From a bacterium (GTDB lineage Bacteria; Omnitrophota; Gorgyraeia; Zapsychrales; Zapsychraceae): 64,000 nt of DNA. The translations under genes were made by a program, and so were the position numbers. The notes under the pieces were generated by a model, which ran no database searches, was not told the origin of the DNA, and saw nothing but the letters and a program-made list of their open reading frames with translations. The DNA is taken from assembly GCA_030429765.1 (NCBI GenBank), contig JAUIER010000012.1, forward strand, positions 32,916-96,915, written 5' to 3'. Of this stretch, positions 3,001 to 30,544 are shown piece by piece; the first letter of the stretch is position 1; each line of letters begins with the position of its first letter.

Positions 3001-3474
3001 AATAGCCCCGCGCATGGCGTTGGCCATAAACTGATCCACCGTATCCAGTAAGTTGGCCTCCAGATTATTCCATGCGCTGGTGATTTGGGAGCCTATGGAC
3101 ATTTGGAGTACCACCCCGACACCGGCAACAGCCACCGTGGTTATCGCAGCTGTCGCCCCAATAGCACCAACCCCGTACGTTACAACAACCAGAATAACAA
3201 TTACAATAAACGATATCAGCGCCTTGAAGAATCCTGTGCTTTGGCATTTCTTGCGTTCCCCACCCAGCTGCTGCATAAGCAACGAGTGCCCGTAGCTGGC
3301 CATGGCCGAGGCCAATGATGCCGCCCCGGTATTAGCCCCTATCTCCGTGGAAACTTTGTTTTCAGAGATCCGCCCCAAATTTAGTGTTACAGCATAAAAT
3401 ATCAACGCAAATGCGACAACCAAAAGGATAACCAGTCCGGCCTGGCCTTCTTTTTTTCGCATCGATTTGTTCAT
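1..3474 (-). CDS. Giant Cys-rich TadG-like protein, partial: N-terminus at 3474, C-terminus beyond the window start. N-terminal Tad/TadE-like pseudopilin-type TM segment (MNKSMRKKEGQAGLVILLVVAFALIFYAVTL), then a Cys/Pro/Gly/Asp-rich extracellular region.
   Basis: Manual translation of the reverse strand from ATG at 3474 stays open to position 1 (1158 codons) with no stop. The ORF track shows only short spurious ORFs here, because the long ORF has no stop inside the window. N-terminal hydrophobic segment resembles Tad/TadG (PF13400-like) proteins. About 50 Cys, including CC and CxC pairs. Confidence 0.6.
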   Translation of the reverse strand, partial: MNKSMRKKEGQAGLVILLVVAFALIFYAVTLNLGRISENKVSTEIGANTGAASLASAMASYGHSLLMQQLGGERKKCQSTGFFKALISFIVIVILVVVTYGVGAIGATAAITTVAVAGVGVVLQMSIGSQITSAWNNLEANLLDTVDQFMANAMRGAIQVAANDNKQVPDLYDSDMDGIFGLHPVTSEPLDTMNRYAKYYPLLLDQIAVNYLPAAEQFLVDLQDFIYKIPGPNGDCFGTTCGPASECDLDSATCQPAWALIDPMPGTFVPGLQTSTINYSFSIPLDPSHPCHVDINVPYGNPVTDPFPFSVPSECNLCCLPDTVPDPRGPSFGQIQVRPGCCDCRGKPPTIQIPDPTNPSGPLITVPNPDYCDPTLFPPNLECGTASTCQLLSPYGAVEPSLGTFYQWVFDENFENSENTFFSFRELLGKDDENQRYFKDSSNPNWAQQFAPPWQGIRYYVDDTTGFYSGYTAPPPSTPENRIGVFPFLWKIHDWGTDLDSLDTVGTLVIGNPVYNPFDQRCKWCDSRAATLCSPNLPYEMNQLVLRNDPSTMTYDTSYCVETYVDDVTLALTGSFEIPVDTCAPDPYAGGAFWKRGSDQFCSNGDIDGPSAWPYSGQCAKFLNGNCTTNVSGTPEPSICECEDPTSTSPADTAAANFPEDILDEMIYNTHTFTREADSLLQYSRGQLASQFETWFENWQRWIDPGQGLANAASPGGTGNFGNCYPYDWDNDPGTPDECQPFAGQLYLWLQALVDIRDELSALAVQSFQGSACATGPWCVPPRGCPDVSAYEELTFDFNGDGTDGQIEDVVACLNYAIHGYDYTCNGGVPDVACLNASSIFDGNDAQYNDCKLTCSLAECTNLPRTLVTNPPYDRNAYVQADPLDEPDMAAMLQCVHACSDLTCRGMAAGLPWNPVLSAMPLTQSSSGAAYAYSGTISNFNAIFDCNGNDLNDARGMRTLVRDSLVQANPICDINPGGWLASTGTAAIEAENQIDKFIMRRDYLDSRMTELNYFRNILTTAIVEFEDFLTNAVPPLIDERIAYDAAPPDDWPNQIVYGWQEDNSPENRPAAPGEAYWHIVKVEGRIPKRCNNACGVGGGPDPKWPKVETYTRKGGLKRCYELFNTDGIVKFRVTRYDESPTPAGGGLRFPNGQPIWKF

Positions 3475-3509
3475 AAATGACATCATATAATTGATTGTCC
3501 CGGGGCTAA

Positions 3510-3791
3510 TTAGTTGTCCCAAATAGCATTCATCGCCGTCCCCGACGAGAAAAATGGAGAAATCTGTGCAATTTGCTGACTGTCAGATACATTGGTATAT
3601 GACCGGCTCAACGTTTGACCGGTCAATATTGTGTCATGCGCAATCCTACGATTTACGATCTCTTTTCCTGACCATTCAAAAATTTTGGTTATCGAATAAA
3701 TCATCAGAAACACGATGATCATACTGAAGGTAAACTCAATGATGACCTGACCCAAGCGTCGTTCTTCAGATGTCTTCTTTCTTCGAATCAT
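3510..3791 (-). CDS. TadE-like pseudopilin (93 aa)
   Basis: N-terminus RRLGQVIIEFTFSMIIVFLMI matches the TadE-like pattern (basic residues, then G-Q/A, then an E-containing hydrophobic helix). Spacing to neighbours is 18-40 nt. Confidence 0.55.
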   Translation of the reverse strand: MIRRKKTSEERRLGQVIIEFTFSMIIVFLMIYSITKIFEWSGKEIVNRRIAHDTILTGQTLSRSYTNVSDSQQIAQISPFFSSGTAMNAIWDN

Positions 3792-3830
3792 TATATCATA
3801 CTCCTAACCGAGGAAATTGCCTACCAAATT

Positions 3831-5246
3831 TTACGGATATAGATACTGAACAAATGGATCTCCGTCCGTCGGCGTTATCCATTTTCGGCCATGCTTATCT
3901 GTTATCCGGCTTCGGACCAAAATGTGAGGATCCTGCCCGCCCAAAGTAGGAATAACCATACAGATTCTTGTCGCATTGGCGCTGGTAAAACAACAGGCAT
4001 TATTCGGACAGCACACCTCCACAGGATTACGCACATCTGATGTCCACCCAGCCTGATTTCCTTCAATCGTGCCCGGTTGAACTACAGAACTTCCATCCCC
4101 CGCCGTACCGTTGCAAAATCTGCCCGTATCATTACTCAGTTGAACCGTCCTCTGGATCAAATCAAGTGAATCTTTACGCTGTGCAGAACGAACATATCGT
4201 CTGGAATCGCCAGCCACCTGATACAACTGCCCCTCATCGATTTGAAGATAAGTGCCCACACCGTCACCGGCAGGTGTCCAATCTTTCGTAAATGTAAACA
4301 TTTGGATGTCTTGTGTCGTGATGCCCGCTGTCGGACGCTGCGGAGCCGGATTGAGAGGATCCGGATCTGGAATTGTAAAGTCCATGTCCCCTTCCTGGAA
4401 ATCCACCACATTGGCTGTTATCGGAGTCCCCCTCAGATCATCCATTGGACGGCCGTTGATACCAACAATCCTTTCCTGGTGCAAATCTCCATCGACATCC
4501 ACAAATGTAAATTCACCGTTTTCACCATCTATCTGTGAAGGTGTCGCAGCAATCCACTGCCACCAAAAATCCTGGCAGATCGCATCCATAGCCGGATCCG
4601 ACGCCAGTCCGTCATCAAGAGCCCCGTTTCGATCCAAATCGAATCGGTAGTAGTTGTTACCGCCGATATTGTCCACACAATTGGACGCCGTACCTCCACA
4701 ATCGCACCATGGTAATGCCGGGTGGTTGTTTTCTTTCTGATATACCAGCCCCGTGGGGTTGGCCGGAGAATTAAATGCCTTTGTCGCCACATTGGCTGTA
4801 GTGAACACAAAGTGCACCCCGTTAATAAAGTAATCGATAACCGGCAAATTGGCAAATTCACCCGGATCAATCGGCATAAAAAGATTACGACTATGGGTTG
4901 CTCCCCCAATCGCTTGTTGGGGAACCCTGTCGATTGGTGCCTGCCTGGAAGATTCCACCGACAGCCTATCTTCAATTACCAAAACTGAGGCACTGTTGCG
5001 GGAGGCGGTGCCATCACGCCAGTTTCCCGGAACATTTTTCAAACCTTCCGTAAATTCAAATGACATGAGCATCGCCAAGCGGAATGCTTTATAGCGATGA
5101 TTTTGTGCATAACTAGTTGTCATGACAGATCTTACAATAAGTCCAATAACAAAAACCACAACCGATCCAAACACCGCTAGTTCCAGAGCAGTTTGCGCTG
5201 TTTTGGATCGCCCCGAAATGGCTTTTTTTGTACGGTTAATATTCAT
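3831..5246 (-). CDS. Large TadE/TadG-like pseudopilin-type protein (471 aa). C-terminal Cys-rich region (VCCPNNACCF).
   Basis: N-terminus GRSKTAQTALELAVFGSVVVFVIGLIV is a Tad-type pseudopilin leader plus TM. Shares CC motifs with the giant gene downstream. Confidence 0.6.
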   Translation of the reverse strand: MNINRTKKAISGRSKTAQTALELAVFGSVVVFVIGLIVRSVMTTSYAQNHRYKAFRLAMLMSFEFTEGLKNVPGNWRDGTASRNSASVLVIEDRLSVESSRQAPIDRVPQQAIGGATHSRNLFMPIDPGEFANLPVIDYFINGVHFVFTTANVATKAFNSPANPTGLVYQKENNHPALPWCDCGGTASNCVDNIGGNNYYRFDLDRNGALDDGLASDPAMDAICQDFWWQWIAATPSQIDGENGEFTFVDVDGDLHQERIVGINGRPMDDLRGTPITANVVDFQEGDMDFTIPDPDPLNPAPQRPTAGITTQDIQMFTFTKDWTPAGDGVGTYLQIDEGQLYQVAGDSRRYVRSAQRKDSLDLIQRTVQLSNDTGRFCNGTAGDGSSVVQPGTIEGNQAGWTSDVRNPVEVCCPNNACCFTSANATRICMVIPTLGGQDPHILVRSRITDKHGRKWITPTDGDPFVQYLYP

Positions 5247-5249
5247 TTG

Positions 5250-5564
5250 CTAGTATGCTCCCACAGCCATAGAACCGGTTTTGGTTTCCAGTGAACGCGA
5301 GACATCATTACGCATTGTTTGCAGTCCAGACGGAGTCGATACAGACACCAGAGCCGTAACCGTATTCGTTTGAATAACATGACGTATACTTCCATTAGTC
5401 GTTCGAGGATCATACTGATCGCCTAATTGATCCACCGATTCTTTCCAACGTCCTTGCATGCCTCGCTTGAAGTAGTTTTGAGAGGCCACCAAGGCCCCTA
5501 TTACGATAATTAAAATCGTCGAGTATTCGATCGCTGATTGACCTTTGTTCTTTCTAATAATCAT
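5250..5564 (-). CDS. Flp-family (class III signal peptide) pilin-like protein, 104 aa
   Basis: N-terminus MIIRKNKGQSAIEYSTILIIVIGALVA carries the G/A-Q-x3-EY prepilin motif followed by a hydrophobic helix. Confidence 0.55.
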   Translation of the reverse strand: MIIRKNKGQSAIEYSTILIIVIGALVASQNYFKRGMQGRWKESVDQLGDQYDPRTTNGSIRHVIQTNTVTALVSVSTPSGLQTMRNDVSRSLETKTGSMAVGAY

Positions 5565-5591
5565 ATATTTATACCTCGACTTTATTCACCA

Positions 5592-5939
5592 TTAAACGTC
5601 TGGTTGGATCCCCAAATTAGTCAGGGTGTTAAGTTGGCCTGAAATCGCATCATCATAGACATAATTGATTATGCCGGCTACGTCTAATGTTTGCTTGTCT
5701 ACTCTGGCACTGGATATGCCATAAGATGCATTCAAATGCCCCTGGGTTATATCATTGAATCGCTGATCGGATTCGTTCTGCACGCCAATTTGATCGGCCA
5801 CAAATCTAATCCAACCTTGGGTGGAACGACGGATCATCGTTCCCATAACAGCCGTAATTGCCACAATAATCGTCAAAATCAGCGTATATTCGACCACCGT
5901 CTGGGCTCTGTGATTAGATTGTTTACTTTGCTTGAGCAT
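5592..5939 (-). CDS. Flp-family pilin-like protein, 115 aa
   Basis: N-terminus ...HRAQTVVEYTLILTIIVAITAVMG (A-Q-x3-EY motif plus hydrophobic helix). Confidence 0.5.
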   Translation of the reverse strand: MLKQSKQSNHRAQTVVEYTLILTIIVAITAVMGTMIRRSTQGWIRFVADQIGVQNESDQRFNDITQGHLNASYGISSARVDKQTLDVAGIINYVYDDAISGQLNTLTNLGIQPDV

Positions 5940-5944
5940 ATAAA

Positions 5945-6325
5945 TTAGTCCGCGTTTATGGCCGGAACTGTGAAACTGACAGAATTTGAAAATGTTGTTT
6001 GGTTGTAATCCTTGCGAAATATTCCAGAACTAAGTGGCAAGGAAGGTAATACGGCCGTCGTATCTGCAAATAAGGTCGTGGTATCTGTAACAGAATTTCG
6101 ATAGTATGGCTCATACTGTACGAAGACATCATTACCTCCGTAGATGTTTCCTACACGATTTCGAACGGTCGTGATAATGGAACTGTGGGCATCGCGAATT
6201 TTTGCCTGCACAGCCCGTCTAAAGTACATTGTCATTCCTGACAGCATGGCAACAACCACAAAAAAAACCAGAACATATTCTCCGGCGACCATTTGGGCTT
6301 TTTCATTTTCAAATCGTCTTAACAT
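5945..6325 (-). CDS. Flp-family pilin-like protein, 126 aa
   Basis: N-terminus ...EKAQMVAGEYVLVFFVVVAMLSGMTMY (A-Q-x4-EY motif plus hydrophobic helix). Confidence 0.5.
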   Translation of the reverse strand: MLRRFENEKAQMVAGEYVLVFFVVVAMLSGMTMYFRRAVQAKIRDAHSSIITTVRNRVGNIYGGNDVFVQYEPYYRNSVTDTTTLFADTTAVLPSLPLSSGIFRKDYNQTTFSNSVSFTVPAINAD

Positions 6326-6423
6326 TCTGGTCCTTTTTTAACACGGTAAGCTTCTCTATTATACACGAATCTATGGATAAAGATCAACTAAAAACACGTA
6401 TCACAAATTGTGAGCTACTTCAA

Positions 6424-6474
6424 CAAAATATGGCTTACCTGAGCAATTATATTCCTCAAGTAAGCCATATTTTG
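6424..6474. repeat. Perfect 15-bp inverted repeat (CAAAATATGGCTTAC … GTAAGCCATATTTTG) with a 21-bp spacer, in the pilin-cluster intergenic region
   Basis: Exact reverse-complement arms seen directly. Adjacent TCACAAATTGTGA palindrome at 6401..6413. Confidence 0.6.
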
Positions 6475-6509
6475 AACAAAACGACTAGCGAGTAGCCGTT
6501 TAGACTGTA

Positions 6510-6839
6510 TTAGTTACCCCAGAATTCTGACGTGTTGTTCAGAATTGCAGAGTTCATTAGGTCATACGTTGTCTCTGCTTGAGTCAACTGAGATCGTGTA
6601 ACCCCAGAAGCAAAAGTATCACGAGACTGTCCGATGACAACCATTTTCTTGATTACGTTAGTGTTACCTTCGGAATACTGTTGTCCAATATCATCAGCCG
6701 CTTGCTTCAATCGTCCTTGAACACCACGTTTGATGTATACCTGGATCGATAAAAGGGCACCAATGATAATGATGATCAGAATCGCATATTCCAATGTACT
6801 CTGACCTTTTTTTCTTTTCTTGTTAAAGTACTTAAGCAT
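6510..6839 (-). CDS. Flp-family pilin-like protein, 109 aa
   Basis: N-terminus MLKYFNKKRKKGQSTLEYAILIIIIIGALLSI. Nearly identical leader to the 7312..7533 paralog. Confidence 0.6.
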   Translation of the reverse strand: MLKYFNKKRKKGQSTLEYAILIIIIIGALLSIQVYIKRGVQGRLKQAADDIGQQYSEGNTNVIKKMVVIGQSRDTFASGVTRSQLTQAETTYDLMNSAILNNTSEFWGN

Positions 6840-6900
6840 TGATATATCCTCCCAAATTAATCCTCTAAGTTAATAGAGGGATTAAGTTATTATCTTCAGA

Positions 6901-7260
6901 TTACAGACCTTGAATAAGACCAAGCGCGGTGTTATATGATGATTCTTGGAAACCACCAACCCCTCTTGTTCTTGCGTTATCTGTTTGCTCAGCAACTGTC
7001 GTGTTATCCAATGTTTGGATTTGGTTAGTCGCTGTATCAATCAGATAATCAGTTTGTAGGTAATACGGCTCGTATTGTGCTGCTGTTCCCAAAGCGTTTG
7101 ATTGAGTAGTCATGTACTGCCCAGCTTCACGAACCCTGGCTTGTAGAGCACGTTGTGCATATGTCTGCATCGCAATAATACCGGCCACAACCAGTGAAAT
7201 CAGGATGGCATATTCTGCAGTATTTTGCGCCTTTTTATTTTTTATTAACTTTCTGAACAT
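6901..7260 (-). CDS. Flp-family pilin-like protein, 119 aa
   Basis: N-terminus MFRKLIKNKKAQNTAEYAILISLVVAGIIAM. Confidence 0.55.
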   Translation of the reverse strand: MFRKLIKNKKAQNTAEYAILISLVVAGIIAMQTYAQRALQARVREAGQYMTTQSNALGTAAQYEPYYLQTDYLIDTATNQIQTLDNTTVAEQTDNARTRGVGGFQESSYNTALGLIQGL

Positions 7261-7311
7261 TTATTTGTCCTCCTAAGATTAAATTCATGTAAAGATTGAA
7301 TTTTTCAAACA

Positions 7312-7533
7312 TTAGTTAGAAGTAGGTCGTGAAGTGGCCAATCGGTTAGCCATATCAGTCATACCGTTTGTACCCGTCGTTAGTGTACTGTTGTACGCTG
7401 TACGGAAGATACCATTAGGTCCTAGGAAAACCAAAAGGGCTGCTAATACGGCCGCAACCAAAATGATATACTCAACGGTACTTTGACCTTTCTTTTTCTT
7501 TTTAGGATTATTATTTATATTCCTTTTAAGCAT
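7312..7533 (-). CDS. Flp-family pilin, 73 aa
   Basis: N-terminus ...KKKKKGQSTVEYIILVAAVLAALLVFLGPNG. Shares the FLxPNG motif with the orphan gene at 17400..17612. Confidence 0.6.
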   Translation of the reverse strand: MLKRNINNNPKKKKKGQSTVEYIILVAAVLAALLVFLGPNGIFRTAYNSTLTTGTNGMTDMANRLATSRPTSN

Positions 7534-7592
7534 TGTCTTCCTCCTTAAAAAAGTTCACTTTTAAGATAGCGCCCACAAAACTTCATCGTGGG

Positions 7593-7760
7593 TTACTGAT
7601 TTCTGGACTCTTGAAGAATTATTTGTTGTGTTGCTTGTACTGATCTAAATACATAGGTACTCATGGCAATTGCTCCTGCTGCCACAATGGCTGCGATTAA
7701 GGCATACTCTAGTATACTTTGACCTGTCGTGTTTCTGATTTTTTGTTTCTTTGACCTCAT
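7593..7760 (-). CDS. flp: Flp prepilin, 55 aa (MRSKKQKIRNTTGQSILEYALIAAIVAAGAIAMSTYVFRSVQATQQIILQESRNQ). Below the ORF-track size cutoff.
   Basis: Found by manual reverse-strand translation. Classic Flp motif: a predicted cleavage site after G, then QSILEYALIAAIV. Typical Flp size. First gene after a dedicated promoter and leader. Confidence 0.6.
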   Translation of the reverse strand: MRSKKQKIRNTTGQSILEYALIAAIVAAGAIAMSTYVFRSVQATQQIILQESRNQ

Positions 7761-7912
7761 CGTAACCACCTTATGTATTTCACAAATAATGCCTGCTCTC
7801 GATGTGATGTTGCTTACATCAGAATCCTGAGAGCTCTATTGCTGAAGGGGTCGACTGTCCAGCCGGCCTTCAACACTTCGAAACATCCTGACTGATTCAG
7901 AACGAACCGAAG

Positions 7913-7935
7913 GGTAAAAGCACTCGAAAGTGCTA
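7913..7935 (-). terminator. Second leader hairpin: AGCACU-UUCG-AGUGCU followed by UUUAC
   Basis: 6-bp stem with a UUCG tetraloop and a weak U-run. Confidence 0.25.
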
Positions 7936-7947
7936 TTAACTCATTCC

Positions 7948-7977
7948 AATAAAAAACCCCTACAGTTATGTAGAGGT
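7948..7977 (-). terminator. Intrinsic-terminator-like hairpin in the flp leader (attenuator candidate)
   Basis: Minus-strand RNA reads CCUCUACA-UAAC-UGUAGGGG followed by UUUUUUAUU. The 8-bp stem holds a U.G wobble only on the minus strand; on the plus strand the same position would be a C.A mismatch. Confidence 0.4.
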
Positions 7978-7984
7978 AATCGGG

Positions 7985-8053
7985 TTATGGCTGTTTCAAT
8001 GAACGCAGACAGCATCTATACGAAATTTTCGTTTTGATCTCAAAAGTATTCAT
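7985..8053 (-). CDS. Candidate leader peptide (uORF, 22 aa: MNTFEIKTKISYRCCLRSLKQP) in the flp 5' leader
   Basis: AGGAG, 6 nt, then ATG. The stop lies about 8 nt upstream of an intrinsic-terminator-like hairpin. Confidence 0.25.
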   Translation of the reverse strand: MNTFEIKTKISYRCCLRSLKQP

Positions 8054-8111
8054 TTTTTCTCCTAGGAATGAAATCGTCATATCTGTATAAATGGCTGTTT
8101 AATGTGATAAA

Positions 8112-8139
8112 AGTATATCATATATCGAGTAATTGTCAA
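8112..8139 (-). promoter_or_regulatory. Sigma70-like promoter for flp
   Basis: On the minus strand: TTGACA at 8139..8134, a 16-nt spacer, TATACT at 8117..8112. Lies immediately downstream of the stop of the 576-aa gene. Predicts a 5' UTR of about 345 nt. Confidence 0.45.
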
Positions 8140-8164
8140 GGATCATGCAATGGTTGCCCTTCCC

Positions 8165-9895
8165 TTATATTAGGTCGAAGTTTAGCCGCCGCCCCTGTCG
8201 ATCCCGGATGTCCCGTGAATTGATCTCCTTGACCGCATGAATTAGCGAAGCCTTTGAATCCGCGGCCGATCCTGCCGAAATAGTCACATATACATGGCTC
8301 TCGTCCAATCGGTATGTGGCGGCACGGTCAAAAGTATCTGAAATTGTTAGACTTACGTATTTGCTGAGATATTGCCCCTCTACATAGGCCTGAACATGAG
8401 ATAAAAGTTGCTCGAACATTCCATCGACGTTCATTATAGTTGTCGCTGCGATCGGTTGAGAAGCCGACGGATCCTCATTTGAGGATACGGGCGCTTGATT
8501 GACATATTTCCGCATGAATGCATCCAGGATGTCCGTATCGGCCGTTTCTGCATTAGTAACCAGGGCCACTAGCGGCTCAGGTGATTCGTGAGCCCAAATG
8601 GCAAATACTGTCAGTGGCTGACTCAAATCATGAACATGTTCGTTCAGAATGTCGGTCGACATCTTGGCATACTGATAGATTGTGTCGTCATCATGACAGT
8701 AATAGGGGATTCGCTGGGCCCATTTCCCCGATTTGACCAATTCCTTCAGTTCTGGCTGACTTGGATGGACTCCAATGATAAATTCCCTGCGCTTAGGGAC
8801 CACGAAGGGTAGACTGGACAATGATCGTGATTCGCCATCAAGTATGTGGACCTCGTTTATAAAAAGCTGCTCTGGAATCTCAAATGATTCGACTAACGCC
8901 GCTATCTCCGGGCTTCCCAAGGAGCGTCCCTCGCTATTAAGCAGACACAAAGTATTGCTATTACTGACGATACAGCTGTCCAAAACAGAAATAGCCTTGT
9001 AAAGCGGTAGCTTCGTTGAAAAATTGTCATTTTTTTGTCCAATCTGAAATAGCTTTGTGTCCAGTTTTAGAGATCGTCCATCCGAAAAATCGATCTGGAA
9101 ACTCTGCGCCATGTTCTTGAGTTGATCAATCTCCAACTCTGCACGGGCCCAAAACGAGCCTGACTGTGAAGAATCAGTAATTTTGCCAATGACTCCCTCA
9201 TTTTGGAGTGGAAGCAACAAGGCTAAATCATTTCGACCTGAGTCTGAAGGGCCATTTTTCTCAAGCCTTGTGAGAATCTGAAAATCCAAGGCCTGGATCG
9301 TTTCCTGAGAATTAATGTCCAAACTGAGATCTCGAAAGAGTTCTGTGTAAAAATTTGACGATAGACATTCACATACACCGGCCAACATAAAAGTCAATCC
9401 TGCGTTGCTAATCGGATGCTCCTCCAAACCTTGTTTCCTTGACCGAATTGTTTCTACGGAGCGTAAGAACTCTTCGTCCAAACCACTCTCAGATTGGACA
9501 TTATTTTTGATCGCGTCCATTTCTTCTGTTTGACCAGAATCCGACATTGTCTGTACAGCTTCACTCTTTGTCGGATCATTTTCCTGGGGAGTAGTGACCC
9601 CTTCGGTTTCGGTCGGTATCGGGATCTTGGTGAGGTCCTGCGAAATCTGAATTTTCTTTTCAGCCGGGATCTCAAACTTCTTTTTCTTCTCGACCTTGAC
9701 CTTGGCCGGTCGACCAACGGAATTGCTTAAATTAGCTTGTTTTAGGATGGTGTTGATGGAGGATTTTGACACCTTGATCTCAAATTTCTCAGATGTCATC
9801 TCGGCTAGTTTTCGACAGCCCAGCTTGGGATTTGATTGCTTCTGATCAAGTATATAGTCGATAACTTCTTTTTTTAGTTTGTGGACAACACCCAT
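8165..9895 (-). CDS. HTH-domain protein of unknown function, 576 aa. N-terminal transposase/regulator-like HTH, a Lys-rich linker, then a large uncharacterised soluble region.
   Basis: N-terminal 60 aa (…KLGCRKLAEMTSEKFEIKVSKSSINTILKQANLS) looks like an IS630/ISL3-type HTH. No TM segments. Sits where tadB/tadC would be expected. Confidence 0.65.
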   Translation of the reverse strand: MGVVHKLKKEVIDYILDQKQSNPKLGCRKLAEMTSEKFEIKVSKSSINTILKQANLSNSVGRPAKVKVEKKKKFEIPAEKKIQISQDLTKIPIPTETEGVTTPQENDPTKSEAVQTMSDSGQTEEMDAIKNNVQSESGLDEEFLRSVETIRSRKQGLEEHPISNAGLTFMLAGVCECLSSNFYTELFRDLSLDINSQETIQALDFQILTRLEKNGPSDSGRNDLALLLPLQNEGVIGKITDSSQSGSFWARAELEIDQLKNMAQSFQIDFSDGRSLKLDTKLFQIGQKNDNFSTKLPLYKAISVLDSCIVSNSNTLCLLNSEGRSLGSPEIAALVESFEIPEQLFINEVHILDGESRSLSSLPFVVPKRREFIIGVHPSQPELKELVKSGKWAQRIPYYCHDDDTIYQYAKMSTDILNEHVHDLSQPLTVFAIWAHESPEPLVALVTNAETADTDILDAFMRKYVNQAPVSSNEDPSASQPIAATTIMNVDGMFEQLLSHVQAYVEGQYLSKYVSLTISDTFDRAATYRLDESHVYVTISAGSAADSKASLIHAVKEINSRDIRDRQGRRLNFDLI

Positions 9896-9960
9896 AGTTT
9901 TCCTAAGATCATCAGATTGGACATTTAAGTATACCGTCCAAATGCGTTTAGGTCAATGGT

Positions 9961-10326
9961 CTAACCAAGAATAATTTTGTCAGCGACTTGAGTGCGGGAA
10001 GATTGGATGACTCCTACTGGAACTTCGATGGCGGATTTTGCCTTCCAGTAAATTCGGCTTAGCCGATTGGGTCGGATATTTTGGACCAAACCCACCACGG
10101 TATTATTGTCATCGATAAAAATCACATCAATGGCGAAACGCATAAAGAACATGTGAATAGAATTACAATGGGTGATTAGCAGACCGTGACCCGGCTCTAG
10201 GGACTTGTGCTTAAGTAATCCCACCATTCTGGACATAAAGGTATCTGCTAAGACGGCTTGATCTGCGATAACCGTATTACGGGTGGAGTTTTCTATCTTC
10301 ATAAGGGTTAGGTTTTGATGTGCCAA
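9961..10326 (-). CDS. DUF192 (COG1430) family protein, 121 aa
   Basis: Size and sequence pattern (…GLLITHCNSIHMFFMRFAIDVIFIDDNNTVVGL…) typical of DUF192. Confidence 0.6.
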   Translation of the reverse strand: MAHQNLTLMKIENSTRNTVIADQAVLADTFMSRMVGLLKHKSLEPGHGLLITHCNSIHMFFMRFAIDVIFIDDNNTVVGLVQNIRPNRLSRIYWKAKSAIEVPVGVIQSSRTQVADKIILG

Positions 10327-10344
10327 CGTCGACGGGGATAGGCA

Positions 10345-12504
10345 CTAGACAGGCTTGTTGAACATCTCTTTATTGAAGTTCATTCCACGGGTAATAAAGT
10401 CGTGGTAACAGTTGGGGACGTATCCTGTGGCCTCAAACTGACCGAGAATCTTGCCATTGCTGTCCATCCCCTTTTGTTTAAATACAAAAACATCCTCGAG
10501 ATGAAGTTGAAAATCGGCCGTGAGTCCTGTTGTCTCGCTGACCCCCGTGATCTTTCTCGAACCGTCTGAATAACGGTTGATGTGAACGATGATCTGAATC
10601 GCTGAGGAGATCATCTCGTTAATCGCACGCACTGGCAGCTCGATACCACTTAACAGAATCATCGAGTGCATTCGGGTCAATACATCGCGTGTTGAGTTGG
10701 CGTGTAGCGTGGTCATTGATCCATCGTGACCGGTATTCATCGCCTGAAGCATATCAAGAACCTCGCCCCCGCGACACTCACCGATAACAATCCGGTCAGG
10801 ACGCATCCGCAGACAGTTGATAAACAAATCACGAATCGTGATCTGCCCTTTACCCTCAACGTTCGCTGGGCGTGACTCCAGACGTCCCCAATGGCTTTTC
10901 TTCAATCGAAGCTCAGCGGCGTCCTCAATCGTGATAATACGCTCGCTGTCGGGAATAAATTCTGAAACGACGTTTAGGAGCGTTGTTTTACCCGCACCTG
11001 TACCACCCGAAACGATCATATTTTTACGGCAAATAACACATGCCTGAAGAAAATCGGCCATTTCCTTGGTGATACTGCCGTATTTTTCAATCAAATCATT
11101 GACCTCGATACGTTCCTGCCCAAACTTTCGAATGGTGATCATTGGTCCGCCCAACGACAAAGGTGGAATAATGGCATTGATCCGCGATCCGTCCTGCAGA
11201 CGGGCATCAACCATCGGAGTCGATTCATCGATTCGTCGACCTAATGGCGCGATGATACGATCAATAATGGAGCGCATCTTTTCATTGGAAACAAATTTTC
11301 GATTGGTAAAAATCAACTTACCATTCTTCTCGACGTAGATTTCGTCCTTGTTGTTGACCATGATATCCGTTACGTCGGGATCGGCCAGGAAATCTTCCAA
11401 AGGACCCAGTCCAAGGGCCTCATTGACAATATCACGGACCACGCGTGTGCGCTCTTCTTGTGAGGAAATCTTACCACCAGACTCCTCCATAAGTAAGTTA
11501 AGAACGACCTGCTCGGCGCTTTTCTTGACCTTTACCGCCGATTCCGGATCACCCAGCATATCAACCGAAATTCCGTCGAGATTAAGCCGTTCGACCAATT
11601 TCTCATGAATCCGTTTCTTCAGCGATATAATCTCATCCTCTTCCGTCGCAAATGTCGTTGTCGTTCCCGCTTGCTGCGTGACACCAAATTTTTCCCAGAA
11701 CGATCCTTGTCCGGACATACCGTCAGTTGATCTGACCTTTTCGACATTGCTGGTCTCAACGTAAATATCGTTCTTCTTGAGCGCATTGACCATTTTGTTG
11801 AATGCATCAGCCACCCCGCTGCGAGGGCTATCTAATACGCAAGGAATCCCCTTGTTAAGGGCCATTCCGACCGTTTTTCCATCTGAAGGAATGTGCGCTA
11901 ATATTTCAACTGGAATCGCCGATCGAACTTCCTGCCAATGGACACTTCCGCGGCTCTCCGAACGGTTTAAGATCAGGCGGACCATATTCATCGGGTAGTG
12001 GAGACTCTGTAAAACGTCCAGACAATTCTTAATCTGATACACAGATAAAATATCCGGCGTTCCGACGAGAAGAATCAAATTCGTGTGGTCCAGCGCGGCG
12101 ACTAGAATATCACTAAACGTACGACCGGCATCAATAATGACATACTCGTATTGTTTGCGGGCAATACGAAAGAACGCCTGTAAAGCCTCGGCATTAACCT
12201 GAGCGATTTCTTTATTGTTTTTTATGGCTGGTAGGAAATGAAGTCCACTTTGATGGACGGTGGCATGCTGAGCTAACGGATCTTGATCGGCATTTGGATT
12301 GCTGAACGTGGGTATGATATCGACGACGGAATTACGAACCTGGACATTAAGCATTCGGGACATATCCTGTCCGGCCTGCATGTCTAGATCGACGAGCAAC
12401 ACCTTTTTTCCAGCTTTGGCTAGTGAAGCCGAAAGGTTTACTGCCGTCAGCGTTTTTCCAACCCCGCCCTTGCTGCTAAAGACGGTAATAATTCTACAAT
12501 CCAT
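10345..12504 (-). CDS. Fused pilus ATPase: N-terminal TadZ/CpaE-like ParA/MinD-type domain (no receiver domain) plus C-terminal TadA/CpaF secretion ATPase
   Basis: Deviant Walker A SSKGGVGKTLTAVNLS at residues 10-25 (ParA/MinD class). Second P-loop VSGGTGAGKTTLLN with T2SSE-family motifs (RIITIEDAAEL, GHDGSMTTLHANS) in the C-terminal half. Confidence 0.85.
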   Translation of the reverse strand: MDCRIITVFSSKGGVGKTLTAVNLSASLAKAGKKVLLVDLDMQAGQDMSRMLNVQVRNSVVDIIPTFSNPNADQDPLAQHATVHQSGLHFLPAIKNNKEIAQVNAEALQAFFRIARKQYEYVIIDAGRTFSDILVAALDHTNLILLVGTPDILSVYQIKNCLDVLQSLHYPMNMVRLILNRSESRGSVHWQEVRSAIPVEILAHIPSDGKTVGMALNKGIPCVLDSPRSGVADAFNKMVNALKKNDIYVETSNVEKVRSTDGMSGQGSFWEKFGVTQQAGTTTTFATEEDEIISLKKRIHEKLVERLNLDGISVDMLGDPESAVKVKKSAEQVVLNLLMEESGGKISSQEERTRVVRDIVNEALGLGPLEDFLADPDVTDIMVNNKDEIYVEKNGKLIFTNRKFVSNEKMRSIIDRIIAPLGRRIDESTPMVDARLQDGSRINAIIPPLSLGGPMITIRKFGQERIEVNDLIEKYGSITKEMADFLQACVICRKNMIVSGGTGAGKTTLLNVVSEFIPDSERIITIEDAAELRLKKSHWGRLESRPANVEGKGQITIRDLFINCLRMRPDRIVIGECRGGEVLDMLQAMNTGHDGSMTTLHANSTRDVLTRMHSMILLSGIELPVRAINEMISSAIQIIVHINRYSDGSRKITGVSETTGLTADFQLHLEDVFVFKQKGMDSNGKILGQFEATGYVPNCYHDFITRGMNFNKEMFNKPV

Positions 12505-12560
12505 AATTTCAAACTTACTGAAGAATGACTAATGAAAATTTAACGTATTATATACCGCTA

Positions 12561-14222
12561 TTAGTTTGTTTGCAAACTATAAACAATCGGAATTGTTATG
12601 TTCAGTTCCTGTAAGTCTGTCTCTGGTGGAAAACTTTCAAAAGGTGCAGTTTCACGGGCTGTATTTAAGGCATAGTCATCAAAGATTTCCTGCCCGGATG
12701 TTTCCTTGACTAGAGCATAGGCCAACGTGCCATCGCTCAGGATGTGCAGACCGATTTTGACAGTCCCTTCCCATCCGTAATCCTTGGCCTCCTGAGGATA
12801 AACAACTTGCTCAGAAATAGCCTGCTGAAGGTTTTGCACGTAATCGGTCATTTCCGGTGGAATAAATGACGAGTAGTCATCTCCTCCGGACATGGACATA
12901 TCCGACATAAACTTCGTCGTCGTAGGGTGCGGAACCTGACTATCCATCATCTTTTTACGAGGCGAATCCTCATTGAGCCCCGTATCGATTCGATGAGGTG
13001 TTAGTGAAATCACTAACTCGACATCTGAATCTGGTGATGGTGTTGATCGGGATCGGAAAACCAATCCGACAACTGGAATGCTGCCTAAAAATGGTACCTT
13101 TTTAACCAATTCACCCGAACGCTGTTGGATCAAACCGGCCAATACGATCGTTTGTCCATCATCAAGGAATAGCTGTGTGCTTGCGCTTCGCGTAACGAAG
13201 GCCACGTCATCCCCCACCGCATTCGAGTTGTCAATATCACTGATCTCAATATTGATCTGAACGTCAATCTTGTTACGCCGAATCGTCGGTGTGATCGTCA
13301 TTCCAATACCATACTCCTTAAATTCGACGTTTTCTTGAGTAGACGTTCCTGTCGATGTCGTCGTACGAATTGGAATTTCACCACCAATTAGGAAACTAGC
13401 CTCTTCGCCGCTCAGAACTACGAGTTTAGGTTGCGATAGGATTCGTCCCATACCTTCTTCTAATAGAGCATTTACGGTAGAAATCAGGGCGCTTGTACGA
13501 CGGAAGTCCCCAATCTTGAAGAAATCTCCAATGGATCCATCAAAATCAGGCAAGTCCTCTGCATAGTCCAGCTTAATACCTCCGCCGGATCCGGTGGCGC
13601 CATTACCACCACCAGCTGTCCAGTCAATCCCTAGACTCTTGGTTAAGGTGGTGTTAAGCTCCGTAACTTGTATGTCGATTTGAACCAAATCTTCGATGTC
13701 CTCTTCTTCCACAAGGCTTAGAACATGTTGGTCAAACGGAGCAATGATATCATCAAACAGTATGGCCTTTTTGTCAGGCACACTACCAGTTAGGACAACC
13801 CGCCCTTCCGGCTTATTGATATCCAATTTTACGTTGTTAATTCCAGCCCCATTGAGAAGTCGTTCAAGTCGATCTTTAATGACGCTTAACTCGGTTCCTG
13901 AGACGTTAATCATAACCACACGTTTGCCATGTTCGTCCCAGATAAATAAAGGTGTTTGGCCCACGTTTTTGGCAATCAGCAGGATTTCCTGTTCGTCGGC
14001 ATCGACAACGTCAGCAATGTCTGGATCAGTCATCGAAAGTCGGGTCAGGGAATATACGCGTAGTTGCGTCAACTCCCCCAGAACCATGTTGACTTCATCG
14101 GTGTATATTGTATCTAAAGCCTCAGCATCGGCTTGTTGAGGTCTTATTAGCCCAAGTCCCATTATTAGGAAGAGCGCCATTATGGTGAAAAATCTGTTAT
14201 GAGTTATCTGTGCTGTTTTCAT
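12561..14222 (-). CDS. CpaC/RcpA-type secretin with a C-terminal TonB_C-like domain
   Basis: Signal peptide, secretin N-domain, secretin core (…LIGGEIPIRTTTSTGTSTQENVEFKEYGIGMTITPTI…). The C-terminal roughly 90 aa (VVYPQEAKDYGWEGTVKIGLHILSDGTLAYALVKETSGQEIFDDYALNTARETAPFESFP) matches the TonB C-terminal domain pattern (PF03544). Confidence 0.8.
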   Translation of the reverse strand: MKTAQITHNRFFTIMALFLIMGLGLIRPQQADAEALDTIYTDEVNMVLGELTQLRVYSLTRLSMTDPDIADVVDADEQEILLIAKNVGQTPLFIWDEHGKRVVMINVSGTELSVIKDRLERLLNGAGINNVKLDINKPEGRVVLTGSVPDKKAILFDDIIAPFDQHVLSLVEEEDIEDLVQIDIQVTELNTTLTKSLGIDWTAGGGNGATGSGGGIKLDYAEDLPDFDGSIGDFFKIGDFRRTSALISTVNALLEEGMGRILSQPKLVVLSGEEASFLIGGEIPIRTTTSTGTSTQENVEFKEYGIGMTITPTIRRNKIDVQINIEISDIDNSNAVGDDVAFVTRSASTQLFLDDGQTIVLAGLIQQRSGELVKKVPFLGSIPVVGLVFRSRSTPSPDSDVELVISLTPHRIDTGLNEDSPRKKMMDSQVPHPTTTKFMSDMSMSGGDDYSSFIPPEMTDYVQNLQQAISEQVVYPQEAKDYGWEGTVKIGLHILSDGTLAYALVKETSGQEIFDDYALNTARETAPFESFPPETDLQELNITIPIVYSLQTN

Positions 14223-14225
14223 AGT

Positions 14226-15104
14226 CTATAGCTCCGCGCCCCCCCGAAAGATTTGAACAAAAGGCAAGTCATCCGCTTCAACTTCCTCGACTTCGACAGA
14301 CTCACGCCGCTCTGCTTTTTTCTGCTTTGGCAGATTGAGCTCTGTCCCTTGCTTATCCAAAACATAATCGGATAGTGAATCCCAGGCGGCCACTTGTAAC
14401 GCTTTAGTGTCTTTCTCCGCCGGAGATCGTAGGGCTAGTTTTAACTTTCCGTATTTCTGAGAAAAAGTGATCAACCCCGCTTCTTCAGGGGCGACTGCGA
14501 TCGTGACATTCAAGTCCCTTGATTTTTGTTGTTGCTGATAAACCAGCGCACTTCCTACCGGTTTAAAATTCGAATTGACGGCCAGCACCTGAATGTTCTG
14601 GAAGAGCACAGATGTAACTTCCAGTGGTTTTTCGAGAGGATCTTGGGGATGTGGCACCTGCAGATCAGCCAAGATATCTACATAATCTCCCGGATTGATC
14701 AATCCACCTACCGCCGATAGAGAATCGATCAGAATTGTCATGGCGCGTTTTCCTGGAGGTGTGATTGAAGCGAACACTGTACTGTCCACAATTTGCGTCG
14801 GCATGCCGGCGGCTGATTTGGCAACTTCACCTTTTGGAAGGTTAGCTAACTGTGCCTGCAACGCTTTTTGCTGTTGCTGCGCCATGGCCTGCATTTGTTT
14901 ATGTAATTCGCGGTTTTTGATCTCCATCTCTTTCCGCAAAGCAGCCGTTTGGGCTTGGGACTTCTTTTCGTAGTCCTGGGCCAATGCCTTGGTTTGTGAT
15001 TCAATACTTCCTTTAACGTATTGACTCATCAAGAAGGCAGCCACAAGCCCTAAACCCACAGCTAGTAGTATCGTTGCAAATTGTTTTTTGTTTTCAATGT
15101 TCAT
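14226..15104 (-). CDS. CpaB/RcpC-like pilus assembly protein: N-terminal TM, Gln-rich coiled coil, SAF/RcpC-like domain
   Basis: Matches CpaB in topology, domain pattern and position upstream of the secretin. Confidence 0.6.
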   Translation of the reverse strand: MNIENKKQFATILLAVGLGLVAAFLMSQYVKGSIESQTKALAQDYEKKSQAQTAALRKEMEIKNRELHKQMQAMAQQQQKALQAQLANLPKGEVAKSAAGMPTQIVDSTVFASITPPGKRAMTILIDSLSAVGGLINPGDYVDILADLQVPHPQDPLEKPLEVTSVLFQNIQVLAVNSNFKPVGSALVYQQQQKSRDLNVTIAVAPEEAGLITFSQKYGKLKLALRSPAEKDTKALQVAAWDSLSDYVLDKQGTELNLPKQKKAERRESVEVEEVEADDLPFVQIFRGGAEL

Positions 15105-15117
15105 AGTTTCACCTCGG

Positions 15118-16125
15118 TTATTTTAGCAAATCCTCCCGGACCTCAACAGTTACCTTTTCTTTGACATTGTCGATGTAATCCAGTATGGCTTGTTGTTGTT
15201 TGAGCAAGGTTTGTGACTGGATGATGTCTTCTTTGATTTCACTGAAAGGTATCGTTTTACCGCCACGAATATCTTCCAGTTTTATGATGTAAAAGCCTTT
15301 GGGGCCTTTAAATACGTTACTGGTACCGCCCTTTTCAAGAGCCAAAATTTCCTGGGCCATCGCCGGAAATGGTTCCTGGGTGATGTAGCCCAAATCTCCG
15401 CCTTTTGACTTTGAATCGGCAATTGAATTGAGTTTGGCTAACTCGGCAAAATCGGATCCCTTGAGCACATCCACCAGGATCTCATTGGCTTTAATCTGGT
15501 CCTTGACCACGATTTCGCGAACCCGGTATTCCGATGGTTCGACCAATTGCTCTTTTTGCTCTTCATAGAATTTTTTGGCGTCTTCTTCCGTGACCTCAAC
15601 GTTTTCGGTGATCTTTCGAGCTGATTCCCGAACCAGAAGAGTGCGTCTGAATTCTTCGACAGCCGCTACGATATCTTTGTCTTGGGCCACACCGGTCCGT
15701 TCGGCATCTTCTACTAATAGTTGCTGACGGACTAACTCCTCCAGAATCAGCTTTTTGGCATCAACATTCTCTGCATCGAAATCGGGGACTACCTCTTTAA
15801 GGGCATCCAACCGTTCGTTAAACTCATCTAATGTGATGGTCCAATTACCCACTTTGGCCAGAAAGTTACCGTCTGATGGTTTGGATGGCATACTTTTCGG
15901 CATCGCTTTTTGAGGTGTTTCAGCTTTGGCCATTTGTTGTGGAGGTGGAGATTGTGGTTGAGTCTGTTTATTGACAACCGGCGGCTTGGGTGTGGAAGTA
16001 GCCACCATCTTCTTTTTGTCTTTCGAGAGGTGTTCTTTAATTGAGGAAATCATGTCGCATCCGGAGACGCTTGAAACAAACACAGTTGCCAACAACAATT
16101 TGAAAATAACGTACCTGGTTTTCAA
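15118..16125 (-). CDS. SurA/PrsA-like parvulin-type peptidyl-prolyl isomerase lipoprotein
   Basis: Lipobox VSSVSGC. Pro/Gln-rich linker. PpiC-type domain (…SKSKGGDLGYITQEPFPAMAQEILALEKGGTSNVFKGPKGFYIIKLE…). First gene of the minus-strand cluster. Confidence 0.7.
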   Translation of the reverse strand: MKTRYVIFKLLLATVFVSSVSGCDMISSIKEHLSKDKKKMVATSTPKPPVVNKQTQPQSPPPQQMAKAETPQKAMPKSMPSKPSDGNFLAKVGNWTITLDEFNERLDALKEVVPDFDAENVDAKKLILEELVRQQLLVEDAERTGVAQDKDIVAAVEEFRRTLLVRESARKITENVEVTEEDAKKFYEEQKEQLVEPSEYRVREIVVKDQIKANEILVDVLKGSDFAELAKLNSIADSKSKGGDLGYITQEPFPAMAQEILALEKGGTSNVFKGPKGFYIIKLEDIRGGKTIPFSEIKEDIIQSQTLLKQQQAILDYIDNVKEKVTVEVREDLLK

Positions 16126-20108: not shown

Positions 20109-20186
20109 TGGCGACCCCAGCGGGATTTGAACCCGCGCTGCTAGCTTGAAAAGCTAGAGTCCTAACCAGGCTAGACGATGGGGTCG
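20109..20186 (-). tRNA. tRNA-Glu (anticodon TTC), CCA encoded
   Basis: Cloverleaf by eye: acceptor CGACCCC/GGGGTCG, anticodon stem-loop CTAGC-TTTTCAA-GCTAG, T-arm GGGTTCAAATCCC. Confidence 0.85.
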
Positions 20187-26609: not shown

Positions 26610-26669
26610 TTGTTAACACCTCGCTAACTATATTTTTTAAATTAAACTAGTCTTCGTATTAGTAGAACC

Positions 26670-26678
26670 TGTGGATAA
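26670..26678. promoter_or_regulatory. Consensus DnaA box (TGTGGATAA) in the dnaN-dnaA intergenic region
   Basis: Exact 9-mer match. Confidence 0.5.
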
Positions 26679-26758
26679 TTTGAACAAATTTATAACATAC
26701 TGAATTAATTGAATTTACAACTTAAATCGATGTTTATAACCTATGTGCAAACCCGTGG

Positions 26759-30542: not shown

Positions 30543-30544
30543 GT

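Follow-up and report, generated by a model that had tools for sequence, protein, structure and literature searches.

The window, that is, the whole stretch of 64,000 nucleotides (64 kb) analyzed here, carries on its minus strand, at positions 12561-14222, an open reading frame of 553 amino acids plus a stop codon. According to the ORF list the frame begins with ATG, and its product combines the Pfam domains PF13629, PF00263, and PF03544; a homology search retrieved a protein from public assemblies (P0001) that is 100% identical to it. All genes and domains described below are encoded on the same strand. The predicted signal peptide covers residues 1-33 (14124-14222), of which residues 2-24 are modeled by AF2 as a hydrophobic helix; its cleavage site, between ...RPQQADA and E, was assigned by eye from the sequence, and in the family alignment the signal peptide is the least conserved part of the protein (0.26). 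It is followed by a T2SS-T3SS_pil_N domain (residues 43-107, 13902-14096; PF13629, 40.4 bits against a cut-off of 23), which aligns with the N-domain of RcpA and which, by analogy with that protein, we infer to be the expected docking site of RcpC (PMC12307814). The second periplasmic alpha/beta domain (residues 112-190, 13653-13889) is modeled with an H-E-E-H-E-E order of elements at a pLDDT of 86-91 and shows a weak BON-like match (PF16693, 21.5 bits) that falls under the cut-off of that profile.

The secretin core occupies residues 253-410 (12993-13466) and is recognized by PF00263 with 138.8 bits (E = 1.8e-40, cut-off 27.5). The best solved relative of the protein is RcpA (8odn, E = 7e-36), and the alignment with it stops at query residue 413. 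The core is followed by a predicted disordered linker of 45 amino acids (residues 411-455, 12858-12992; pLDDT below 50 at residues 416-451) and by a module consisting of an extra N-terminal helix (residues 456-472) and a TonB_C core (residues 473-550), encoded together at 12573-12857 and modeled at a pLDDT of 82-90. In the full-length AF2 model, which has a pTM of 0.43, no confident packing between domains is seen. Judging from its sequence, the gene product is the outer-membrane secretin of a Tad (Flp) pilus machine, which bears out its earlier designation as CpaC/RcpA-like in the preliminary description of this DNA. Specifically, the secretin core, the pil_N domain with a signal peptide, and an operon with RcpC/CpaB, a CpaF/TadA ATPase, and Flp-type pilins are all as in the RcpA/CpaC subfamily, and the one feature of that subfamily that fails is the C-terminal TadD-binding tail, the place of which is taken by the linker and the TonB_C module.

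The operon around the secretin gene is evidently conserved, as indicated by gene order in related loci. Immediately beside the secretin gene lies rcpC/cpaB (14226-15104; PF16976, 81.5 bits; syntenic in 70 of 74 loci), which encodes a predicted inner-membrane-anchored protein of the alignment complex with 292 amino acids. The C-terminal tail of RcpC, “PxIQIFRGGxEL”, is conserved among the 80 sequences compared and is the best-conserved short strand of the operon. Next to it is a gene for a PpiC/SurA-like peptidyl-prolyl isomerase (15118-16125; PF13145, 72.8 bits; syntenic in 68 of 68 loci), a predicted lipoprotein with the lipobox VSG/CD, whose G-C-D motif is 80-90% conserved among 73 sequences. 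On the other side, the gene at 10345-12504 (syntenic 69/70) encodes a ParA/TadZ-like ATPase fused to a CpaF/TadA-type T2SSE motor ATPase in a single protein of 719 amino acids, with PF13614/PF10609 at residues 4-242 and PF00437 at residues 364-644. A DUF192 protein (9961-10326; PF02643, 65.8 bits; syntenic 66/67) is a further conserved member of the operon, as is a 576-amino-acid protein with no assigned function (8165-9895; syntenic 54/58). The latter shows only a sub-threshold N-terminal HTH match and, when its sequence is read by eye, no obvious hydrophobic transmembrane stretch, and homologs of 554-598 amino acids occupy the same place in the three syntenic loci that we inspected.

The series of putative pilin genes at 3510-7533 was recognized by N-terminal motifs read from the translations and, for the 73-amino-acid frame, by a Class_IIIsignal match. 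This last frame (7312-7533; PF04021, 28.4 bits) encodes a Flp-type pilin, and flp is syntenic in 49 of 55 loci. Five pilin-like paralogs at 5250-7260 share the N-terminal motif “G/A-Q-(S/T)-x-x-E-Y”, and the series also holds proteins of 471 and 93 amino acids with pilin-like N-termini; a matching series is present in each of the three inspected loci.

The preliminary description had likened the last 90 or so residues of the secretin to TonB's C-terminal domain, and both profile and structure comparisons agree with it. PF03544 matches residues 472-550 (nt 12573-12809) over profile positions 2-79 of 79 with 53.6 bits (E = 3.1e-14), against a gathering cut-off of 24.6, so that this profile and PF00263 both score above their curated cut-offs. 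The NCBIfam model tonB_Cterm (TIGR01352) gives 43.1 bits against a cut-off of 27.1, and the Pfam TonB_2 profile gives 22.2 bits on the same protein. The signature residues are present (Y475-P476, A479, G483-W-E-G486-x-V488, D497-G498, S509-G510, F514-D515, and F531-P532). An AF2 model of residues 444-553 (pLDDT 81.8, pTM 0.68) places a three-stranded sheet on helices, and when it was compared with the PDB by Foldseek, the top 26 matches were all C-terminal domains of TonB, FusB, HasB, or TolAIII, rather than any unrelated fold. These matches include the Helicobacter pylori TonB C-terminal domain 5lw8 (E = 3e-6, TMt 0.76), the TonB chain of the BtuB:TonB complex 2gsk (chain B; rmsd 1.7 Å, TMt 0.78), the TonB chains of the further complexes 2grx, 6i97, and 9dc4, and the TolA of the TolB-peptide complex 6s3w. 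A search by sequence alone also found an H. pylori TonB C-terminal domain (6sly, E = 2e-6), while the sequence similarity of the module to TolA is marginal (E about 0.09). Altogether, profile matches and predicted fold identify the last ~95 residues as a genuine TonB_C domain, with a resemblance far beyond chance.

The same description had treated the secretin as a single odd gene, a view that did not survive a survey of its relatives. The architecture is common to 119 of the 120 best homologs, the exception (P0051) being a fragment of 337 amino acids, and at least one TonB_C domain is encoded in all 203 family members examined, with two copies in 18 of them. Relatives turn up in no fewer than 562 loci of GTDB species representatives; in the best 80 of these, the match extends to residues 548-553, and these 80 are labeled Omnitrophota, apart from a few with generic labels. 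These comparisons indicate that the fusion of secretin and TonB_C is a conserved trait of the phylum Omnitrophota. Many of the genes bear only the name “TonB family protein” at NCBI, and the Tad secretin is therefore hidden from genome surveys.

Within the family, the TonB_C domain is the most conserved region of the protein, with a majority-residue frequency of 0.80 (0.75 in the secretin core vs 0.28 in the linker) and with 38 of its 78 columns at 90% or more. Fifteen invariant columns lie within residues 476-545. This conservation seems far above what would be expected of a TonB C-terminal domain. In strand 3 (residues 539-548; ELNVTIPIVYSL), every position is conserved at about 80-90% or more, as would suit an interface with a protein that is read by its sequence. 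The length of the linker ranges between 26 and 227 amino acids (median 50), and its composition is rich in A, E, S, K, and P, with 8% Pro. In the mature N-terminal tail, which is otherwise variable, D37 is nearly invariant.

The nearest relatives of the module are found outside the canonical TonB proteins. In an exhaustive search of 1.84 billion representatives, which supersedes an earlier word-indexed search with the TonB_C module alone that had returned five fragments, none of the 150 closest domain matches belonged to a canonical TonB. In Omnitrophota, the same TonB_C subtype is also carried by TolC-like OEP channels as a fusion (P0269, P0279, P0280, and P0251). A homology search with one of these (P0269) gave only 3 matches because repeats saturate the word index, and it confirms the architecture rather than a frequency.

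To account for these observations, we tentatively propose, at a little less than an even chance, that the module is a passive docking element, tethered in the periplasm, which stands in for the tail through which canonical Tad secretins bind their pilotin. On this proposal, the pilotin-binding tail of RcpA/CpaC would have been replaced by the disordered linker and TonB_C, and about 13-14 modules per ring would hang on the periplasmic side outside the secretin barrel, just below the outer membrane. By beta-strand augmentation, the third strand of each module would take hold of a short strand exposed on a conserved envelope protein. To our knowledge, strand augmentation is the partner-binding mode of every solved complex of a TonB or TolA C-terminal domain among the Foldseek matches. 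Such docking would fix or position the secretin, or aid its assembly, which is the job of the TadD pilotin in canonical Tad systems, and the module would transduce no proton-motive force. In broader terms, the ligand of the module could be a protein strand or peptidoglycan. The preliminary description had named a tether to peptidoglycan or to a partner among its suggestions, and in this general form we find the suggestion plausible and prefer it.

Two candidate strands for a protein ligand were considered. The conserved RcpC tail described above was demoted, since a simpler account is that it corresponds to the beta-hairpin with which RcpC binds the N-domain of RcpA (PMC12307814). The string “LDTIYTDEV”, which resembles a TonB box and stands at the start of the mature secretin, was rejected as a ligand in cis for want of conservation, as the family keeps only D37 and “DEV” of it.

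The strongest rival to protein docking, possible in our estimation though we would bet against it, is that the modules bind peptidoglycan or another envelope polymer and so pin the secretin ring and the TolC-like channels to the sacculus. It would account for the occurrence of one TonB_C subtype on two unrelated channels, at the secretin's C-terminus and at the N-terminus of the TolC-like OEP. Tandem repeats combined with such fusions are typical of polymer-binding modules, and here the module is duplicated in 18 secretins and reaches up to 6-7 copies elsewhere; the range of 1-2 copies in secretins and 3-7 in related proteins suggests polymer avidity, and linkers of 26-227 amino acids suit a reach to the wall layer beneath the outer membrane. 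Reportedly, the C-terminus of Escherichia coli TonB associates with murein, as Kaserer et al. are said to have described in 2008. The peptidoglycan-binding AMIN domains of PilQ provide a precedent on a secretin (PMC10653833). However, the solved complexes of this fold among the Foldseek matches are all with protein or peptide, and nearly every residue of the sheet is conserved, which goes beyond the usual need of a generic glycan binder. The module is also acidic (family mean net charge -4 and pI about 5; -12 and 4.05 for the copy in the window), whereas the E. coli TonB C-terminal domain is basic, but charge says little about whether the ligand is peptidoglycan or protein, because the entire secretin is acidic.

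We consider it improbable that the modules instead form a homo-oligomeric collar, in which neighboring modules would pair with each other, or dock onto their own N-terminal region, and thereby stabilize or template the 13-14-mer without a pilotin. The lack of a gene for a TadD-like or TPR lipoprotein in the operon of the window and in the three syntenic loci would fit such self-assembly, as would the high conservation over all faces of the sheet, which is suited to multiple self-contacts, and the near-invariance of D37 in the N-tail. TonB C-terminal fragments, moreover, can form strand-exchanged dimers. Against a collar, the AF2 model lacks confident packing between domains, the TonB-box-like “LDTIYT” of the N-tail in the window is not conserved in the family, and linkers of up to 227 amino acids, together with copies of the module that stand alone or are fused to TolC-like channels, are ill-suited to a collar specific to secretins.

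The preliminary description had further suggested that the module couples the channel to an energized inner-membrane component. In such a scheme, the module would meet an ExbBD- or TolQR-type motor or a TonB-box partner, and the proton-motive force would open or regulate the secretin. The full TonB_C signature is indeed kept, including the YP motif and the Gln three residues before it (Q472, which presumably aligns with Q160 of E. coli TonB), and some linkers are long and contain Pro, Ala, and Glu. Nevertheless, we regard energy coupling as very unlikely. The polypeptide begins with a signal peptide rather than a TonB-type membrane anchor and is predicted to be anchored in the outer membrane; no ExbB/ExbD or TonB-dependent transporter genes were found in the 64-kb window or within 10 kb on either side of four other loci, and no TolQ/TolR/Mot genes in the window or the inspected syntenic loci; and linkers with a median of 50 and a minimum of 26 amino acids are too short to cross the periplasm to the inner membrane. 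In addition, the module has its nearest kin among non-canonical proteins, secreted or outer-membrane-fused, rather than among TonBs. Finally, an artefact that joined a secretin gene to an adjacent small TonB-like gene by sequencing error, always a general possibility in metagenome-assembled genomes, can be rejected with near certainty, since hundreds of independent assemblies carry the frame unbroken, at 36-77% identity, and the sole apparent exception (L066) has a run of N in the linker.

Secretins normally need accessories to reach the outer membrane, to assemble in it, and to stay fixed there, and those known are an S-domain with its pilotin, lipidation, AMIN domains, and GspAB. Were a TonB_C domain to play this part, it would be a new solution, and the fold, familiar from energy transducers of the inner membrane, would serve in passive adaptors on outer-membrane proteins as well. 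In the papers searched on secretins, on fusions of the TonB C-terminal domain, and on Omnitrophota, we found no description of this fusion, and Seymour et al. 2023 contains no mention of TonB or secretin. Extending the docking proposal, we speculate that secreted TonB_C domains might form a lineage-specific general system of Omnitrophota, in which the Tad secretin and TolC-like ducts plug into one periplasmic partner, be it a protein or the cell wall; this idea we hold to be rather doubtful. If true, it would represent an unrecognized, pilotin-free way of tethering and positioning outer-membrane machines. Omnitrophota are ultra-small and mostly uncultured, and their Tad machine has been proposed to be a device for predation or attachment (PMC10066038). 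On the idea of such a general system, the TonB_C domain of the secretin would be essential for building a pilus thought to be used in attachment or predation by ultra-small, probably host-dependent bacteria. As the most conserved part of the protein, kept in all members examined and recurring on TolC-like channels, the module is a good entry to the envelope biology of the phylum.

Comparison with known systems places the protein between several of them. It resembles RcpA/CpaC (8odn) in its signal peptide, pil_N domain, and secretin core and in the position of its gene next to rcpC/cpaB, a CpaF-type ATPase, and Flp pilins. RcpA, however, ends in a short random-coil S-domain, the last residues of which (412-416 in Pseudomonas aeruginosa) bind the TPR pilotin TadD (PMC10499894), whereas the protein in the window ends in the linker and TonB_C, in an operon devoid of tadD; the contrast with pilotin-binding secretin C-termini that had been drawn at the outset thus holds. 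With TonB's C-terminal domain (PF03544), the module shares the full-length profile match, the alpha-beta-beta-alpha-beta fold, and the YP and G-x-E-G-x-V motifs, and its extra N-terminal helix is like the one that packs on strand 3 in H. pylori TonB 179-285 (PMC7098700). Yet it fails the marks of TonB proper: it is joined to an outer-membrane protein and lacks an inner-membrane anchor, it has no rigid Pro-rich spacer spanning the periplasm, it shows no association with Exb or transporter genes, ExbBD included, in the inspected loci, and it is acidic rather than basic.

Domain III of TolA (1lr0, 6s3w, and 1tol; Foldseek hits 7, 13, and 26) has the same class of fold and uses strand augmentation to bind phage g3p or a short strand at the N-terminus of TolB, but TolA has an inner-membrane anchor and is energized by TolQR. 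Fusions of TonB-C to a Wzi-like protein of the outer membrane in FCB bacteria (PMC12419801) and to TolC-like OEP channels are alike in that a secreted TonB_C is covalently attached to an outer-membrane channel or barrel; unlike the secretin, these fusions carry the module N-terminally and involve other partner families. The AMIN domains of PilQ, the T4aP secretin, are N-terminal and of an unrelated fold, whereas the module described here is C-terminal and has the TonB_C fold. Nonetheless, both are accessory periplasmic modules of varying copy number on a secretin, and AMIN, by binding an envelope component, positions its secretin and enables its assembly (PMC10653833).

The gene at 12561..14222 on the minus strand starts with ATG and encodes 553 aa, at exactly the coordinates that the preliminary description had given for a secretin with a TonB_C-like end. 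Pfam matches above the curated cut-offs place T2SS-T3SS_pil_N at residues 43-107 (40.4 bits), Secretin at residues 253-410 (138.8 bits), and TonB_C at residues 472-550 (53.6 bits versus a cut-off of 24.6; profile positions 2-79 of 79), so that the proposed scan with PF03544 and PF00263 is positive for both; a TonB_2 match lies at threshold. The NCBIfam tonB_Cterm model also passes (43.1 bits versus a cut-off of 27.1). The polypeptide starts with a signal peptide and lacks a membrane anchor of the TonB type. Among solved structures, the closest to the whole protein is that of the P. aeruginosa Tad-pilus secretin RcpA (8odn, E = 7e-36); the alignment takes in the N-domain and secretin core and ends at query residue 413.

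In the AlphaFold2 model of the whole protein, computed from an alignment of 88 sequences, the N-domains and secretin core are confident, residues 416-451 are disordered (pLDDT <50), and the C-terminal module has a pLDDT of ~88-90, with helices predicted at residues 456-472, 477-482, and 512-525 and strands at 486-494, 500-509, and 539-546. Residues 444-553 were also modelled separately (pLDDT 81.8, pTM 0.68), and comparison of this model with the PDB gave a C-terminal domain of TonB, FusB, HasB, or TolA for each of the top 26 matches. Leading these are the H. pylori TonB-CTD (5lw8; E = 3e-6, TMt 0.76) and TonB chains from complexes with BtuB and FhuA (2gsk_B, rmsd 1.7 Å). The H. pylori TonB-CTD was also found by sequence search alone (E = 2e-6), with the extra N-terminal helix included. 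The TonB_C-like end is thus confirmed by Pfam, by NCBIfam, and by a TonB/TolA-type fold: a TonB_C match is present, and the predicted structure is not an unrelated one.

The fusion is not limited to this contig. Among the 120 best database homologues, with identity down to 43%, all but one fragment combine PF13629, PF00263, and PF03544; those named by source are Candidatus Omnitrophota/Omnitrophica, and their proteins bear the names “TonB family protein” or “pilus assembly protein CpaC”. When one genome was scanned per GTDB species, at least 562 loci proved to encode a relative, and the best 80 of these (down to 36% identity) all reach query residues 548-553 and carry Omnitrophota titles, apart from one bulk-labelled MAG set (“uncultured Planctomycetales”) and one entry titled only “bacterium”. 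The suggested survey for this fusion, using local HMMs, found TonB_C in 202 of 203 secretins, as one copy in 184 and two in tandem in 18; the remaining gene is broken by an N run, with the domain encoded immediately downstream. Two secretin-TonB_C proteins of 1045-1091 aa (P0249 and P0232) have two TonB_C domains followed by ~300-490 residues without a Pfam match. According to Seymour et al. (2023), a Tad locus of Omnitrophota, located near the origin in V. archaeovorus, probably serves in attachment or predation; the words “TonB” and “secretin” do not occur in their text (PMC10066038), and our literature search did not find a description of the fusion. The architecture is already present in public databases under automatic names, and we found no paper interpreting it.

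Conservation within the protein peaks in TonB_C, with a majority-residue frequency of 0.80 (38 of 78 columns at ≥90%), compared with 0.75 for the secretin core and 0.28 for the linker. Fifteen columns within residues 476-545 are invariant, and conservation reaches ~80-90% or more at each position of the third strand, which in TonB complexes is the partner of the TonB box. The linker, disordered and with many A/E/S/K/P residues, is 26-227 aa long in the family (median 50).

An exhaustive phmmer search with the module alone against 1.84 billion representatives gave only 203 matches at E ≤ 1e-10. Secretin fusions make up 102 of the best 150; the rest are mostly fragments of such fusions, and what is left consists either of M56-peptidase fusions or of proteins that have a signal peptide or are lipoproteins and hold 2-7 TonB_C copies in tandem, with no canonical TonB among these 150. 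Several relatives are TolC-like outer-membrane efflux channels (PF02321) with 1-6 N-terminal TonB_C of the same subtype (proteins P0269, P0279, P0280, and P0251, and positions 7735-9744 of locus L085). Two of them carry an Omnitrophota label, which for P0280 is the name of its own source and for P0269 comes from its 90% cluster, and an RND pump gene lies a few genes downstream of P0280. The TolC-like proteins are a second outer-membrane channel family with a TonB_C appendage.

The secretin gene belongs to a Tad/Flp operon whose genes all lie on the minus strand. First comes a PpiC/SurA-like isomerase gene (15118-16125; conserved in 68 of 68 loci), followed by rcpC/cpaB (14226-15104; 70 of 74), the secretin, a ParA/TadZ-CpaF fusion gene (10345-12504; 69 of 70), DUF192 (9961-10326; 66 of 67), a conserved 576-aa protein (8165-9895; 54 of 58), a Flp-type pilin (7312-7533; 49 of 55), and five pilin-like paralogues with two larger proteins that have pilin-like N-termini (3510-7260). 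The isomerase has a lipobox (VSG|CD, Asp at +2), with the G-C-D motif 80-90% conserved and then a variable Pro/Lys-rich spacer, and might serve the secretin or the pilins as a dedicated foldase. ParA/TadZ-like and CpaF/TadA-type ATPases are usually separate proteins in Tad systems; here, one 719-aa polypeptide holds a ParA/TadZ-like domain (residues 4-242) and a CpaF/TadA-type T2SSE motor (364-644), a fusion kept at 722-723 aa in other Omnitrophota loci. For the 576-aa protein (homologues 554-598 aa), encoded between DUF192 and the pilin genes, the only domain match, an N-terminal HTH, is below threshold, and no hydrophobic stretch stands out as a TM segment. On the downstream side, the operon adjoins an ORF of >1194 aa (1-3582, minus strand) that exits the left window edge, is without a Pfam match, and contains hydrophobic segments at its N-terminus; in L003, a syntenic locus, the equivalent position is taken by a gene of 934 aa, and large or giant genes have been noted beside Omnitrophota pilus clusters (bioRxiv 10.64898/2026.06.07.730766).

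Genes for the TadB/TadC platform (PF00482), prepilin peptidase, and the TadD pilotin are absent from this otherwise complete-looking operon (3510-16125) and from ±10 kb around the secretin in the inspected loci L002-L004. TadBC has been described from Omnitrophota by Seymour et al. (PMC10066038), so these genes presumably lie elsewhere in the genome. ExbB, ExbD, TolQ, TolR, TonB-dependent transporter, and TadD-like TPR genes are likewise absent from the scanned window ORFs (a scan that left out a few small ORFs and the last, 62774-64000) and, in the other inspected loci, from ±10 kb around the secretin.

The operon lies ~10 kb from dnaA, dnaN, gyrB, gyrA, and the GC-skew switch. The chromosomal origin region spans ~26000-30600, with the skew changing sign at ~26-28 kb; dnaA (26759-28105), dnaN, a DciA-like gene, gyrB, and gyrA are on its minus strand and yidC, parA, and parB on its plus strand. 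The window also holds a 6S RNA (45780-45935, plus; 60 bits versus a gathering score of 46.4), three clustered tRNAs (35606-35883, plus), a single tRNA (20112-20185, minus), and a complete Nqr/Rnf-type operon (56713-62514, plus) encoding NqrA-like, NqrB/RnfD, FMN-binding, two Rnf-Nqr membrane, and NqrF-like reductase subunits. Residues 3-109 of the ORF at 38986-39657 (plus) match ribosomal protein L20; its C-terminal stretch weakly resembles ribosomal S13 (29.9 bits, slightly below the cut-off of 31) and could be an unusual extension or ORF-calling read-through.

The identity of the protein parts is secure, and from here on we infer function. We propose that the module would be a passive periplasmic docking unit that stands in for the pilotin system in positioning or assembly, because it occupies the former pilotin-binding position, no pilotin gene was found in the operon or inspected loci, and it recurs on another outer-membrane channel family. 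As its partner we tentatively prefer, ahead of peptidoglycan, a conserved protein strand that would be bound by beta-augmentation. Beta-augmentation is the binding mode in solved complexes of the TonB-CTD fold among the PDB matches, and together with the extreme sequence conservation it makes a protein-strand ligand plausible. The RcpC tail “PxIQIFRGGxEL”, which is almost invariant, suggests itself as the strand; a beta-hairpin of RcpC completes the RcpA N-domain sheet (PMC12307814), and the tail would be more economically explained as the equivalent of this hairpin than as the module ligand. The tethered module might bind peptidoglycan instead, a plausible though less likely reading that would fit the variable copy number, the tandem arrays, the fusion to unrelated channels, and the precedent of the PilQ AMIN domains (PMC10653833). 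Self-association of the modules, for example as a collar, appears improbable. Coupling of the secretin to an energised inner-membrane component, as the preliminary description had entertained, is very improbable, since a module anchored in the outer membrane, on a tether of as few as 26 residues and without Exb/Tol context in the scanned ORFs or inspected loci, cannot act as a TonB-type transducer. Tested for anchor, spacer, and Exb context, the secretin does not qualify as a TonB protein; what belongs to the TonB_C domain family is its C-terminal module.

A domain fusion alone is not a new principle. This one would surprise a secretin specialist, and it offers a specific, testable way into the envelope organisation of a phylum about which little is known. 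Canonical RcpA binds the TadD pilotin through its very last residues, 412-416, which are needed for secretin assembly (PMC10499894). The contrast originally drawn with pilotin-binding secretin ends is therefore borne out: where RcpA has its TadD-binding tail, the Omnitrophota secretin carries, at exactly that position, a tether and a TonB_C domain instead.
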